From Planctomycetota bacterium (GTDB lineage Bacteria > Planctomycetota > PLA2 > JAEUHO01), in assembly GCA_965222115.1 (NCBI GenBank), contig CBDCTJ010000003.1, positions 192,001 to 256,000 on the forward strand: a DNA stretch of 64,000 nucleotides, written 5' to 3'. Shown here in pieces: positions 4,369 to 9,725 of the stretch (positions within the stretch are counted from its first letter, which is position 1; each line of letters opens with the position of its first letter). The position numbers were made by a program, and so were the translations under genes. The notes beneath the pieces were generated by a model. The model did no database searches, had not been told where the DNA came from, and was given only the letters and a program-made list of their open reading frames with translations.

Positions 4369-4641
4369 CTAGCCTCCTGAAATGGCCTGGACAATAAGGA
4401 TTTCGTCCCCGTCGCTGAGCGTGTGTTCGCCGAACGTGGCGCGAGGCAGGACTCGTCCATTGAGTGCACACAGCACGTGAGGACGAAGCGCGCCCTTGCC
4501 TTCCAAGATGTGGGCTCGAAGTCGTGGCAGCATCGCACACGCTGCCTCGAGTCCTTCTCCGACCGTTTTGCCTTCTACGCGCACGCGATCGGCCCCGACG
4601 GCAACTTTAAGCACTGAAGGGAGCCGAAGGGTCGCGCTCAA
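4369..4641 (-). CDS. MoaD/ThiS-family ubiquitin-like (beta-grasp) sulfur-carrier protein
   Basis: LRLPSVL...GKTVGEGLE...LRPHVLCALNG...LSDGDEILIVQAISGG with C-terminal diglycine; TTG start overlaps the upstream TGA (TTGA at 4641-4638). Confidence 0.9.
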   Translation of the reverse strand: MSATLRLPSVLKVAVGADRVRVEGKTVGEGLEAACAMLPRLRAHILEGKGALRPHVLCALNGRVLPRATFGEHTLSDGDEILIVQAISGG

Positions 4642-5759
4642 GACACGACTGCCACAGTTACAGAGAGAATGCCGGGCAGGTGCTGCGCGATGATGCTCCA
4701 ACTCACGCCGCCGTCGTTGCTGGCAAAGAGCGAACCACCTTGCGTACCGAAGTAGACACCGCAGGGATCGAGTGTGTCATTCGTTAGGGCTTGGCGAAGC
4801 ACGCTCACATGCGCATGCCGCCGGGGTAATCCGCGGTTGCGCTTGCGCCACTTCTTTCTTCGACCGTACTCGTAGATCGCCAACTCGCCGTCCGTGGCGC
4901 GAAAGCTATAGTCCACATGGGCAAGGGGGATCACGAAGCAGGAATGCGGGTCTTGCGCATGCAACGCGAGCCCGAATCCAAAGTCCGATGGGAGACCGCC
5001 GTCGATGCGCTCCCAGCCCTCCCCCGCATCGATCGACTTGTAAACGCCTACGTGATTTTGCTGGTAGAGAAGACCCGGAACCTCCGGGTGCGCGAGCAGC
5101 TTATGCACTCAAGTGAATACTTCGCTCTGCTCCGGCGCGCCGACGTAGCTGGCGACGCAGCTATTGATGGGCTTCCACGTGGTACCACCGTCGTCTGAGC
5201 GAAACGCTCCCGCAGCAGAAATAGCCGCGTACATGCGAGCCGAATCGCCAGCGTCAAACTGGATGCTGTGCAGGCACTGTCCGCCCGCCCCAGGCGTCCA
5301 GTCCTTACGCGTCTTGTGCTTGTTAAGACCGTCCACCGGCTCCCACGTCTTCCCGCGATCCTCGCTGCGGAAAAGTCCAGCGGGTGCGGTGCCCATGTAG
5401 AGCACGCTCCTTTGCTTGGCCGGGCCTGGCGTGATGTTCCATATCTTCGGCGACGCATCGAGCCCGAATTGCTTAGCAAACTTTGACGCCTTCGGATTGA
5501 GCTTCGGAAACGTGGGCAGACGCTCGGCTGCCTTGAATTTCAAAGTGCGTAGCGGCGCGGACTGCACTGTTACACCGAACGCGTAGTGCGACGCACCCGC
5601 ATGAAGTTTTGGTGCACCGCGTGTATCGATCACCGCGTAGGGAACCTGCCAACCCCGTAGCAGTGGCTCGGAAACGCTCCACCGCTTACGTCCGACGCCT
5701 CCCTCGACAAGAAACAGTCCGCGCTTTGTGCCGACCGATAGGATTACACGTCGTGCCAT
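4638..5759 (-). CDS. BNR/Asp-box beta-propeller (sialidase-like annotated family) protein, 373 aa, with in-frame TGA at 5111-5109 (codon 217); candidate selenoprotein
   Basis: ORFs 5109..5846 and 4638..5108 are contiguous in one frame (SEVFT-TGA-VHKLLAHP); Asp-boxes SEDRGKTW, SDDGGTTW, SIDAGEGW, SNDGGVSW lie on both sides of the TGA; GGAGG RBS before ATG 5759; N-terminal VGTKRGLF motif. Confidence 0.85.
5060..5108 (-). promoter_or_regulatory. Putative bacterial SECIS element
   Basis: mRNA after the UGA: GUGCAUAAGCUGCUCGCGC-ACCCGGA-GGU-UCCGGGU-CUUCUCUACCAGC; perfect 7-bp stem (5073-5089), GGU loop 26 nt after the UGA, possible lower GCUG/CAGC pairing. Confidence 0.65.
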
Positions 5760-5975
5760 GGATGACCTCCGGGTGTAGGCGATTCCCGCCCACCGATGTC
5801 TACGCGGTAACTTTACCACGTGGCCCAATTCGGTTGGAAGCCGCACAATTGTGCCCGCTTCCTATTCACGCAGAGTTAACCAACACAACCACATCAACGT
5901 TCACGTCCGCGCGCACGGCCTCGCTTGGCGATCTTGGCGCCCTTGGTGAGCCCCTTCTTCTTCCAAGATGTACCG

Positions 5976-8900
5976 CTACCTAATGTCGACCCGAAGCGTG
6001 CAGCGTGCGACACGGCCTTCGGCAATCACCAGAGGTTGCTCGACGACATGCGCCGGTGACCCATCGACGCGCACTCGAACGGTGTAGGGACCGGGTCGCA
6101 GATCGGGAATAACAAGCGAACCATCTTCGGTGAGCCGCCTCGTTCGCTTGCCTACCGAGGCATCGGAGACTTCAGGTAAGTGAACGAGCGGTAGCGATTC
6201 GCCCCGTTGAAAGAGCGATACTTCGGCACCGCGCAGCACATGCCCGGCGCTGTCCTCAATGCGCACGTGCGCCGATCCCGATGGCACGAGCGTAAGTTTG
6301 ACCGTAGAAAGTCGGCCGGATCGCACGGGAATTAGCGACGACATCGCCCGGCCATAACCCTGCGCATGGACGCGCACGCACGCGCTTCCAATGGCCACGC
6401 CTTCGAGCAAGAGTTTGCCGTCCATGCCGGTGGTGAGCGTGGAGCGGTGCAAAGGATGTCCATCGGCATCGTGAATCACAACCGTCGCATCCGGCACGCT
6501 CTGTTTCGATTTGTCGATGGCCCACACCTCAATGCGTCCACCGTGGCTGAAGCGAAGATCCATGGAAATCGTATGACCGGCTTTGTCGCTCTGCATATTG
6601 TCGGCGAGTAGCGGTGGCCATCCCTCGGCTCGAACTTCCACGTTGTAGCGTCCGTAGGGAACGCCCGCAATTCGAAAGCGACCCAACGCATCACTGCGCC
6701 CGCGGGCTTCAAAGACAGGGCCGTCATAGCTCTTGGACGCTTTGTTGCCCATCCATGTCGCAATGACGTCGGCCTCCAACACGGGATCGCCAAAGGCGTC
6801 AACCACCGTGCCTTCAAGCAACGCGTCATACACTTCGAGCTCCACCTCGACGTCTTGTCCCTCGTTAAGTTGAACGACGTGCTCTACTTGCATCGCGGCG
6901 TCGGTCTGGCGCAGGCGATAACGACCGGGTGGAATGCCACGAACCGAAAAGCGTCCGTACTCGTCACTTCGCAGTGCGTGACGGCGGAAATAGGCCGACG
7001 CACCTACGTCGGTAAGTAGCAACTCAAGCGATACGCCCGCCGCACCCTCGCCCCCGTCGCGACGAATGATGCCCGACAGGTGCGTATCACTGGAATCGCG
7101 AAAGGTAACTTCGCTGCGCTTCTCATTGGCCACATCCACGAGCACCGTCTGATCGGCGGGCACCTCGATGCCACGTACACGGCGAAACAGTCGGTAGGAA
7201 CCGGGTTGCAATCCGTCGAGCTCTGCGATGCCCTGCTCCGACGTCACCATGCGCCATGTGGGACCCACATCGTCCGATCGAGTAACCGCAATCATCGCGC
7301 CATCGACCGGCTCCCCATTGCTTGCTTCGGCGCGAACCACAATCGTACCGCCGTTGGTCATGTTGATCGGGGGCAACACGAGCACTTCGTTGGGAGGGAG
7401 CCGCACAATTTGTGTATGCACGCCACCATCGGGCGTGACCACCGTAAGCCGCCAAAGACCGGAAGCGATCTCGTCGTAGGCAAACGCGCCGTTGTCGCGC
7501 GTGGTCGTGACGCGTTTGCACCCCGGCCCATAACGCGCCATGCCGGGACCCTGTAGGCGCTCGGCTTGAATGCGCGCGCCAAACACGGGCTTTCCGTCGG
7601 CGTCAAATACGGAACCCGCAAGGCGCGAGATGGGCATGAGCGTGAGCGAGACGCCGTCCACATTGTCGGTTTTCACCAACACGCTTTGAACATCGCTGTC
7701 GCGCAGGCCCTGCACGGCACGCAACTCGTACCGACCCGGGGGAACGTCTTCGATCGTAAAGCTAATGCTCGACCCTTCGTCTTCCGTGGGATAGGTCCCG
7801 ACCTCGCGAAACGAATAGACATCCTCTTTGGCGTTGTACACGCTGGCGTAAAGCGAGACATGAATGCGTTCGTCGCGGTCGCTATCTTCGACGCGGCCCG
7901 AAATGGACACAACAGGCGGGATCACCAAATCAATGGCGGATTCAATGCCGGGCATAACCTGATCGCGCTGCGCCAACACGTGACTCGACTGCTCACCTCG
8001 TCCCAAGACTTCAAACACCAACGGGTCGGATGGGAGTCCGTCCATTTGAAATGTGCCGTCTTGACGGGATTGAATGACCTTGGTGAAGTCACTGCGATGC
8101 GCACGCGCTCGTACCGAGTAGGCGTTACGTACGGGCCCGGTAAGACGACGCACCGCGCCAGAGATCTCGTGAAGTCGAGTTAGCGTGGCCTCCACATCCC
8201 GCACTGTTCCCGACGAAGGAAAGAACTCTTTGCCACGCGCGAGTTGGTAGCCGGGCGCGGAAATGGTCCAAACCACATCGTCTTCCGGCATGTGCGCAAT
8301 GACCGCAAGCCCCTCGGCGTCAGTCGTCGCAGTCAACCTCGGCATGAATTCGGTGTCCCAGATCGAGAAGGCCTCCTTGGCCATGGGATGGGCTGTCACT
8401 TTGGCGTCGGGAACCGGTTTTCCATGAATGTCGCGCGTCTTCACGCGCAGTGACCACGCCGGCTTGACGGCGATATCCCCCACGTCGTTGGCGCCGCCCG
8501 GTGTGACATCCAGAAGCTTGTCGAGCACCGGCATGATCGCGTCGCTCACCAGCAAAATGCGATAGTCGGATGCCGGAGTAACGCCATTGATTTCGAACTG
8601 CCCGTTCTCATCGCTCATTACAGGTTGTGGCACCGCAATTCGGCTTCGCGCGTTGGACGAGTTTGGCGGACGCACCAGCGAAACCGTGACGCCTGCCACC
8701 GGTTTCTCATCGGACCAAATCACACGACCGCGCACCGTCGTTCGTCGTCGCGCAAACCAAAGCTCGCGTTCGTTGACGCGAATGTCATCCACCTGCACAA
8801 GTGTATGGGGATCGGCCAATGTCCACAGGGGATCGGCCATCTCGACGCGATACACACCCGGTTGCAATCCCGTAAAGAGAAAGCGCCCCTTGTCGTCAAC

Positions 8901-9725
8901 AACAGTTTCAAGCGGCGCTTCGTCTTCAAGCGCCGACTCGTCTTCTGTGGGTGTGCGAGTGAGCCGCTTTGCAACCGCACCGCCCTCACCCCGGGGTAGC
9001 GGCGTCAATCGAACGCGCGCACCTACGGCGTAGACTTCGCCGTGCGCATCCGCATCCATCACGCGACCGCGCAGTTCGATGCCCTGTCGCAGCGTAATTC
9101 CCTTGGCCTCACCGCCCGATTCCGCGCGTCCCAGATACTGCAACCGCCCTGTAGGCGTCCTCAGGAGCAATGAGTAAATCCCTGGGGCGAGATGATCAAA
9201 TGCGTAGCTGCCATCGTCGCTACTCGTCGCGACGGAAGCCAAGTCGCCCTTGTCGGAGGGCAATGCATAGACGACAGGCCGCGCCTTCTTCGTGGCACCC
9301 AACAGCTTGACCGTGCCGTGCAAGCGCTTGCCTTCAAGCAATCGCAATGTGACCGTCGTCATCGTCGTATCGCTTGGCACACGAACGGATGCATGGCCGG
9401 GTGCCCACACGACATAGTCGCCAGGGATTTGTCCTGACGGCTTCTTGGCTGCGAGGTAGTCCTCGATCATGCCGTCTTTATTGCTATGGGCACGAACGTC
9501 GCGACGCGGATCAAAGAGTGGTAGGTGATGCACGTGCTCTGTGACCCAACTCACGCGGGCACCCTGGAATGGACGTCCGGTCTTACCCAAGACCTGAATG
9601 CGCGCGGGCCAACTCGCTTTGGGCGTCGCGTCTTCTTTGGCAACGGATTGCGATTCAGTAACAAGCACCGCGCTACAAACAAGCAGCGTTGACATCAACA
9701 ACGTGGCGCCAAACCTCATCGTCAT
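5976..9725 (-). CDS. Large secreted protein with many carboxypeptidase-regulatory-like (transthyretin-like/Ig) repeats
   Basis: Signal peptide; recurring GRV-D-xG-PV-GA-V...TDxxGxF...L-PG-Y motifs; ATGA overlap with the tsaE stop. Confidence 0.8.
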   Translation of the reverse strand: MTMRFGATLLMSTLLVCSAVLVTESQSVAKEDATPKASWPARIQVLGKTGRPFQGARVSWVTEHVHHLPLFDPRRDVRAHSNKDGMIEDYLAAKKPSGQIPGDYVVWAPGHASVRVPSDTTMTTVTLRLLEGKRLHGTVKLLGATKKARPVVYALPSDKGDLASVATSSDDGSYAFDHLAPGIYSLLLRTPTGRLQYLGRAESGGEAKGITLRQGIELRGRVMDADAHGEVYAVGARVRLTPLPRGEGGAVAKRLTRTPTEDESALEDEAPLETVVDDKGRFLFTGLQPGVYRVEMADPLWTLADPHTLVQVDDIRVNERELWFARRRTTVRGRVIWSDEKPVAGVTVSLVRPPNSSNARSRIAVPQPVMSDENGQFEINGVTPASDYRILLVSDAIMPVLDKLLDVTPGGANDVGDIAVKPAWSLRVKTRDIHGKPVPDAKVTAHPMAKEAFSIWDTEFMPRLTATTDAEGLAVIAHMPEDDVVWTISAPGYQLARGKEFFPSSGTVRDVEATLTRLHEISGAVRRLTGPVRNAYSVRARAHRSDFTKVIQSRQDGTFQMDGLPSDPLVFEVLGRGEQSSHVLAQRDQVMPGIESAIDLVIPPVVSISGRVEDSDRDERIHVSLYASVYNAKEDVYSFREVGTYPTEDEGSSISFTIEDVPPGRYELRAVQGLRDSDVQSVLVKTDNVDGVSLTLMPISRLAGSVFDADGKPVFGARIQAERLQGPGMARYGPGCKRVTTTRDNGAFAYDEIASGLWRLTVVTPDGGVHTQIVRLPPNEVLVLPPINMTNGGTIVVRAEASNGEPVDGAMIAVTRSDDVGPTWRMVTSEQGIAELDGLQPGSYRLFRRVRGIEVPADQTVLVDVANEKRSEVTFRDSSDTHLSGIIRRDGGEGAAGVSLELLLTDVGASAYFRRHALRSDEYGRFSVRGIPPGRYRLRQTDAAMQVEHVVQLNEGQDVEVELEVYDALLEGTVVDAFGDPVLEADVIATWMGNKASKSYDGPVFEARGRSDALGRFRIAGVPYGRYNVEVRAEGWPPLLADNMQSDKAGHTISMDLRFSHGGRIEVWAIDKSKQSVPDATVVIHDADGHPLHRSTLTTGMDGKLLLEGVAIGSACVRVHAQGYGRAMSSLIPVRSGRLSTVKLTLVPSGSAHVRIEDSAGHVLRGAEVSLFQRGESLPLVHLPEVSDASVGKRTRRLTEDGSLVIPDLRPGPYTVRVRVDGSPAHVVEQPLVIAEGRVARCTLRVDIR

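Follow-up and report, generated by a model that had tools for sequence, protein, structure and literature searches.

On the minus strand of the DNA analysed here, a stretch of 64,000 nucleotides from a Planctomycetota bacterium (GTDB lineage Bacteria; Planctomycetota; PLA2; JAEUHO01) that we refer to as the window (GenBank assembly GCA_965222115.1, contig CBDCTJ010000003.1, positions 192,001 to 256,000), positions 5759 to 4638 very probably make up one gene for a 373-residue selenoprotein, with selenocysteine (Sec) at a position that its homologues fill with cysteine (Cys). A first-pass annotation, made from the letters of the window alone, had proposed such a protein, with Sec as residue 217 (U217) of a BNR/Asp-box beta-propeller. 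Several lines of evidence support this proposal, among them the occupation of the homologous codon column by Cys or TGA codons, a hairpin after the TGA that is tied to the TGA-containing forms, and the presence of selA, selB and tRNA-Sec in the same genome.

The codon at position 217 and its counterparts in homologues

Two open reading frames (ORFs) of the ORF listing, 5109..5846 and 4638..5108, lie in the same frame and abut at a single TGA (5111-5109), which reads on the minus strand as GAA GTA TTC ACT TGA GTG CAT AAG; every coordinate and letter that the first-pass annotation gave for this arrangement proved correct. It had also claimed that the frame bears no other lesion and that the GTG following the TGA has no ribosome-binding site, and both statements hold. 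Translation from the ATG at 5759, with the TGA read as U, runs through 373 residues with U217 and meets no further stop or frameshift. Inspection of the sequence ahead of the GTG at 5108 showed no Shine-Dalgarno-like motif, whereas GGAGG precedes the ATG at 5759.

The column was then followed in homologues, at the level of both protein and codon. A word-indexed search gave 7,978 relatives, of which the best 120 clusters at 90% identity were examined, with the following results. First, 50 clusters have at least 360 residues, and all 50 carry C-[V/I]-H-K. Second, 67 clusters are 212 to 228 residues long (exactly 216 in 61 cases) and end in T, the residue just ahead of the column. Third, the three remaining clusters are other fragments. 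When the window protein was aligned with 37 full-length homologues, C217, V218, H219 and K220 came out as invariant, and the consensus of these homologues, VGTCVHKLL.HP..PGRLYQQNHVGVY, agrees with the family motif that the first-pass annotation had given (EVGxCVHK). At the codon level, we located the column by tblastn in 160 related loci, 80 of them from GTDB species genomes and 80 from metagenomes. The genome loci have TGC in 48 cases, TGT in 10, TGA in 21 and TAA in one, and the metagenome loci, which are mostly distant Cys forms, have TGC in 71, TGT in 6, AAC in two and TGA in one (L103, the sole further TGA locus). Overall, Cys is encoded in 135 of the 160 loci, TGA is found in 22, asparagine in two and TAA in one. 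Thus, the expectation that homologues would have Cys here, and not tryptophan, is borne out by 135/160 loci and 37/37 aligned proteins, and that of further genomes with TGA at the site by 22 loci. The two asparagine loci (AAC at L107:2119 and L108:2104), from distant soil relatives, read R..CY instead of Q.NH at motif positions 233-236, and may represent a subfamily that has lost the site.

We refer to the 22 fetched TGA loci plus the window as the TGA or Sec forms (n=23). In all 23, the frame past the TGA stays open for 154 to 157 codons. A rough estimate of the ratio of nonsynonymous to synonymous substitution rates (dN/dS) gave 0.30 downstream of the TGA and 0.37 for the upstream segments, part of which is non-coding; as judged from these substitutions, the downstream frame is under purifying selection.

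These data bear on the possibility that the TGA is a true stop within a split or decaying gene, which would yield a 216-residue N-terminal fragment and leave the remainder untranslated or translated separately from the GTG at 5108. Gene callers and the NCBI annotation handle the TGA in this way, and the databases hold the corresponding entries, namely, 216-residue records named 'WD40/YVTN/BNR-like repeat-containing protein' and, in a 50%-identity library, one representative of 216 residues that covers family profile positions 1-216 and another of 155 residues that covers 218-373. The selD gene, moreover, looks broken in the assembly of this genome. However, a true stop would have been retained in 22 other loci of different species, ahead of a frame that is open and apparently selected in 23/23 cases, and at a site that is otherwise an invariant Cys and that is followed by a TGA-specific hairpin (see below). 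It would also leave half of a seven-bladed propeller, which would presumably not fold alone, and a GTG lacking a Shine-Dalgarno motif. We therefore regard a true stop as very unlikely, and the selenoprotein reading implies that at least 67 database clusters and the 22 fetched loci have been cut at 216 residues, or split in two, by an annotation error.

The hairpin after the UGA and the selenocysteine machinery

The first-pass annotation had noted a perfect hairpin, ACCCGGA-GGU-UCCGGGU, in the expected place of a selenocysteine insertion sequence (SECIS). Folding of the window sequence confirmed it at 5089-5073, with an apical loop that starts 26 nt after the UGA. The significance of this hairpin lies in the comparison across homologues, and not in single-sequence energy. 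First, the 60 nt from the UGA align without gaps in the 23 TGA forms, and each of these forms has the six core pairs between columns 24-29 and columns 33-38; pairing reaches 84.1% over the nine-pair helix, and only 31.9-51.2% if the partner columns are shifted. Second, some changes are compensatory, since pair 29-33 is C-G in 22 forms and A-U in the window, and pair 24-38 is C-G in 17, U-G in five and U-A in one. Third, the six core pairs are all formed in 23/23 Sec forms but only in 2/135 Cys forms, with a mean energy of the 26-nt segment of -15.0 and -5.9 kcal/mol, respectively. Fourth, when only sequences encoding HPxxPG are considered, the hairpin is found in 21/21 Sec forms and 2/24 Cys forms; both proline codons are CCG in all 21 Sec forms, whereas in the Cys forms they are so in 9/24 and 16/24. 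Therefore, synonymous sites maintain the structure only in those forms that have the UGA.

The hairpin also satisfies all constraints of the bacterial SECIS (bSECIS) consensus model, as given in the legend of Fig. 2A of a 2026 review (PMC13188914), namely, a loop of 3-9 nt (here 3 nt), a stem of 4-16 bp (6-9 bp), G within the first two loop positions (first in 23/23), a distance of 16-37 nt from the UGA (26 nt) and an energy of -7.5 kcal/mol or lower (mean -15.0). In addition, the hairpin seems to constrain the peptide that it encodes, which is HPAAPG in 16/23 Sec forms. This stretch of RNA would thus be an instance of dual coding, where the SECIS appears to fix both proline codons as CCG and to favour Ala-Ala in the peptide. 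By inspection, and with no estimate of chance attached, an 11-mer, CACCCGGAGGT, is present twice on the minus strand: the first copy (5776-5766) spans the ribosome-binding site of the gene, and the second (5090-5080) makes up the 5' arm and loop of the hairpin, because of which the loop carries GGAGG in this genome.

In a quick maximum-likelihood tree of 46 sequences, Sec forms are spread through the whole clade of Planctomycetota and Eisenbacteria, with Cys sub-clades nested within it. The Sec/Cys label needs 11 changes on this tree, and at least seven of these changes are forced by well-supported branches. As all Sec forms share one and the same hairpin element, the simplest reading would be that Sec was repeatedly replaced by Cys. 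Among the Cys forms, only two genome loci, L048 and L046, retain the complete set of six pairs. The former has TGT together with an intact hairpin, and its genome gave no selB match over the cut-off, which fits a recent replacement of Sec by Cys after loss of the Sec trait, or an incomplete metagenome-assembled genome.

The genome of the window (4.55 Mb, seven contigs) has matches to selA (480.7 bits), selB (346.6 bits) and tRNA-Sec (71.6 bits), the last of which is called tRNA-SeC, with anticodon TCA, by ARAGORN. It also has a match to selD (150.6 bits), which is itself of the Sec type, with a TGA within its GG-U-AAK motif and its own hairpin after it. The selA gene is split between two contigs, C1 (at its end) and C7 (at its start). 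These contig ends overlap over 328 columns with four one-base gaps and no mismatches, so the contigs join there and their ends are error-prone. Since the overlap differs by these four one-base indels, the frameshifts seen in selD, at the same end of C1, are tentatively attributed to assembly, as probable indel errors. Hence, from the set of selA, selB, selC and selD that the first-pass annotation asked for, the first two and tRNA-Sec are present, while selD is there in a frameshifted form. With these components, UGA217 would be recoded to Sec by the ordinary bacterial route, in which the mRNA hairpin at 5089-5073 would recruit SelB and SelB would deliver Sec-tRNA(Sec) to the codon.

The same components bear on a readthrough of the UGA without Sec, whether by near-cognate insertion of tryptophan or Cys or under a reassigned code, and possibly stimulated by the hairpin. 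Structure-stimulated stop readthrough does occur in other systems. In this genome, however, TGA acts as an ordinary stop, which closes 13 of the 34 long open frames of the window as well as the propeller gene itself, and selA and selB are free of internal stops. Furthermore, homologues have Cys at the aligned position, a typical finding for Sec sites, the hairpin agrees with the bSECIS model of the legend cited above, and tRNA-Sec, selA and selB occur in the genome, with selB over the cut-off in 21/22 genomes that have TGA or TAA at the site (20/21 with TGA). Non-Sec readthrough is thus highly improbable. Last, we consider it barely credible that a TGC or TGT codon was turned into TGA by an error of sequencing or assembly: homopolymer indel errors do occur at contig ends, where selD is frameshifted, but the errors observed are indels and not substitutions, TGA recurs at the same column in 22 independent assemblies, and Logan contigs, that is, assembled sequence, from three runs (X1, X2 and X3; two samples of one study, which may include the source data) cover the codon and show TGA with no differences, in line with the call of the first pass.

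Some observations weigh against the selenoprotein reading. First, as a single sequence the hairpin is unexceptional in energy (86-nt fold, z = -0.92, with 39/200 shuffles at least as stable). Second, covariation is thin, since three of the six core pairs are invariant and double changes occur in four cells only. Third, the stem lies over the codons of a conserved peptide, P-x-x-P-G, which favour CCGG pairing. Fourth, an Rfam scan of positions 4950-5200 returned no SECIS family, and only chance-level matches to mir-149 (E 4.7) and p27_CRE (E 5.3). Fifth, selD is interrupted by several frameshifts in the assembly. Sixth, one relative from Planctomycetota carries TAA, and not TGA, at the Sec column (L026:886-888), with both the hairpin and the downstream frame intact. 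The gene may have been inactivated recently, the codon may be an assembly error, or something odder may be at work, because tRNA-Sec should not read UAA. The presence of selB was also tried as a discriminator between Sec and Cys forms and was rejected, as the 21/22 genomes with TGA or TAA compare with 19/21 of the Cys-form genomes tested; this result is consistent with the Sec reading but does not discriminate in its favour. The features discussed are listed in Table 1.

Table 1. Positions of the proposed selenoprotein gene, its signals, its downstream neighbour and selD. Positions are those of the window, except for selD, which is given on contig C1.
Feature	Position	Strand	Description
Proposed selenoprotein gene	4638..5759	minus	373 codons, ATG 5759 to codon 4643-4641, then TGA stop 4640-4638
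UGA predicted to be read as selenocysteine, U217	5109..5111	minus	Homologue column Cys/TGA; 67 of the 120 best database clusters end before it
SECIS-like hairpin	5073..5089	minus	ACCCGGA (5089-5083), loop GGU (5082-5080), UCCGGGU (5079-5073); also encodes H-P-E-V-P-G
Ribosome-binding site GGAGG	5766..5770	minus	6 nt ahead of ATG 5759, by inspection
ThiS/MoaD-like gene	4369..4641	minus	90 codons, ends ...AISGG; Pfam ThiS
selD	C1:654443-655201	minus	Sec-type, several frameshifts, within last 1.2 kb of contig C1

Fold, putative active site and the ThiS/MoaD-like neighbour

Pfam models for Sortilin-Vps10 (38.9 bits) and BNR (32.7 bits) match the product over their cut-offs. No NCBIfam model does, the top one being the F510_1955 family glycosylhydrolase, with 60.3 bits against the 175 required. 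A family profile, built from 38 members and used against the chains of the Protein Data Bank (PDB), matches entry 3b7f along residues 5-371 with E = 8.3e-93. For structural comparisons the window protein was represented by an AlphaFold2 model of a Cys homologue, P0004, which is 72% identical to it. This model has a predicted local distance difference test score (pLDDT) of 91.6 and a predicted template modelling score (pTM) of 0.91, and its best Foldseek match is again 3b7f, with a template modelling (TM) score of 0.89, followed by halves of glycoside hydrolase (GH) family 74 structures at around 0.6. On the basis of this profile and model, the product is a seven-bladed BNR/Asp-box beta-propeller of the 3b7f family. 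This family is large, as 2,781 representatives in the 50%-identity library match the profile at E <= 1e-30, large multi-repeat proteins included. In the protein atlas, its relatives bear generic names only. The atlas also contains structural matches to P0004 (TM 0.91) in which propellers are fused to Ser/Thr protein kinase domains, in clusters from Acidobacteriota, which hints that some relatives may act as ligand-sensing modules.

To place the Sec/Cys residue within the propeller, we combined conservation with the P0004 model. In the region examined, the most conserved columns among the 160 loci are H164 (160), H219 (159), C/U217 (157) and H236 (157), followed by H224 (142), C162 (111) and C274 (40). 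The first-pass annotation had suggested a possible metal site made up of CLHS, UVHK and QNH; the four leading columns fall in these segments, but C162 of CLHS is Cys in no more than 111/160 loci. In the model, strands start right after residues 162 and 217. In beta-propellers the top face is made up of the D-A and B-C loops, with the Asp-boxes located in the C-D loops. By this general topology, residue 217, H219, H164 and H236 would surround a central pocket of the top face. Sec/Cys217 would lie where the inner strand of blade 5 begins and, together with the near-invariant His164, His219 and His236, may line this pocket in a catalytic or metal-binding role. A Cys/Sec-plus-His centre is therefore favoured, either as a metal ligand set or as a nucleophile. 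The site would thus mark a likely functional residue of a large family that has unsupported glycosidase names and one orphan crystal structure.

The gene that follows encodes a ThiS/MoaD-like protein, and its TTG start (4641-4639) overlaps the TGA stop of the propeller gene, as TTGA. The product matches PF02597 (ThiS) with 40 bits against a cut-off of 22.5, but stays under the cut-offs of the named equivalogs, namely, SAMP1 (41.9 against 60), ThiS (37.1 against 37.45) and archaeal-type MoaD (33.2 against 49.5). Where the sequence extends 330 nt or more past the propeller gene (148 loci), a ThiS-like ORF ending in GG follows in 110 cases, 72 of them with a four-base NTGA overlap. The phyla with such a neighbour are Planctomycetota, Eisenbacteria, Gemmatimonadota, Actinomycetota and Chloroflexota, and the C-terminal Gly-Gly is invariant in 36 aligned partner sequences. 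The genome of the window has four ThiS-type genes and one ThiF-type E1, located away from the propeller locus; clustering of the neighbourhoods showed no E1, JAMM or desulfurase gene conserved beside the ThiS/MoaD-like gene.

It is tempting to speculate that this translationally coupled Gly-Gly protein is the working partner of the propeller, probably as a sulfur carrier or acyl substrate. Such a tight coupling provides a concrete biochemical hypothesis, although we hold only tentatively, as a possibility that falls short of being probable, that a Cys/Sec217-His centre works with the ThiS/MoaD-like partner. More doubtful still, and on balance unlikely, is the wider proposal that the widespread 'sialidase-like' single-propeller family is no glycosidase family but constitutes a new enzyme class. 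Its central Cys/Sec-His3 metal or redox centre would work on the C-terminal end of a ThiS/MoaD-like protein dedicated to it, or together with that end, by a new chemistry of sulfur or selenium transfer or of acyl-(seleno)thioesters, and a Planctomycetota lineage would have upgraded the key Cys to Sec, thereby exposing the catalytic residue. Three observations weigh against these functional proposals. First, there is no other conserved neighbour gene, since in the neighbourhood clustering no family besides the propeller and its antisense shadow ORFs occurs in more than nine loci (the ThiS-like ORF was located by a separate analysis), and the Pfam matches of the less-shared families are to unrelated regulators, transporters and similar proteins. 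Second, C162 (of 'CLHS') and C274 are not conserved family-wide. Third, the solved paralogue, 3b7f, has aspartate where the family has Cys. On the upstream side, the window encodes on the minus strand (5976-9725) a protein of 1,249 residues with at least eight CarboxypepD_reg (carboxypeptidase-regulatory-like) repeats and an N-terminal hydrophobic stretch, which neighbourhood clustering did not find kept beside the propeller gene in other loci.

Comparison with known systems

GH74 xyloglucanases and GH33 sialidases have Asp-box repeats and a propeller architecture in common with the window family, and a glycoside hydrolase identity (GH33/GH74) was considered on these grounds. It was rejected, as full-length similarity to a characterised glycosidase domain was not found: GH74 and GH33 chains give partial, repeat-level matches of 21-56 bits, with TM scores of 0.36-0.63 (query-normalised, at most 0.63). 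Because these matches are only partial, the names 'sialidase' and 'glycosyl hydrolase' stem from nothing more than repeat-level similarity. The conserved Cys/Sec and several histidines of the window family are, we presume, other residues than those of glycosidase catalysis, and no carbohydrate gene was found by neighbourhood clustering to be conserved near the propeller gene. The propeller protein is, thus, not a demonstrated glycosidase.

The closest protein of known structure, 3b7f (Reut_B4987 / YP_299179.1 of Ralstonia eutropha JMP134, a 'putative glycosyl hydrolase with BNR repeats'), shares both family and fold with the window protein. It is described as a seven-bladed Asp-box propeller, and its function is given as 'Not known' (PMC2716378). 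In the profile alignment, 3b7f retains His219 and the QQNH motif, as in the window protein, but differs from it at two columns, with aspartate at the Sec/Cys column and Cys at that of Lys220. Therefore, it is a paralogue without the Sec/Cys residue.

As to known bacterial selenoproteins, FdhA and Sec-type SelD share with the propeller gene an in-frame UGA at a Cys-aligned catalytic position and a downstream hairpin with G in a small apical loop, and depend on selABCD, as covered in the review (PMC13188914). The Sec-type selD of this very genome has the same layout of UGA and hairpin as the propeller gene. What sets the window protein apart from established selenoproteins is the Asp-box propeller fold, which is new among them, and the U-V-H-K sequence, which is not a UxxC/CxxU redox motif. 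The first-pass annotation had not placed the family among described selenoproteins, and it is indeed absent from the catalogue of 119 prokaryotic selenoprotein families and subfamilies in Table 1 of the same review, which has no propeller, BNR or sialidase-like entry, and hence no Asp-box beta-propeller fold. None of the NCBIfam models that the review cites for orphan selenoprotein families matches the window protein. Likewise, the main texts of PMC13188914, PMC12013277, PMC13326102, PMC2398784 and PMC9312934 contain no propeller- or sialidase-type terms, their supplementary lists lying outside the scope of this statement, and no relevant terms were found in PMC1779556. Full-text searches gave no paper in which selenoproteins are connected with proteins of the BNR, Asp-box, sialidase or propeller type; the candidate lists of deep-Sep, BSepDB and metagenome surveys could contain the family. 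The recoding mechanism is the standard bacterial one, and the family is new to the selenoprotein lists examined here.

The second comparison concerns sulfur carriers. Sec variants of sulfur-relay proteins, namely, MoeB, rhodanese-like, DsrE-like and YeeE/YedE proteins, are among those catalogued in Table 1 of the review (PMC13188914). No pairing of a propeller with a sulfur carrier was found in the literature searched. In the MoaD-MoaE, ThiS-ThiG and CysO-CysM pairs, as here, the gene for a small beta-grasp protein with a C-terminal Gly-Gly lies beside that of the presumed enzyme partner, with translational coupling. Unlike in these pairs, however, the partner at the window locus is an Asp-box propeller, and the carrier falls under the equivalog cut-offs for ThiS, MoaD and SAMP1.

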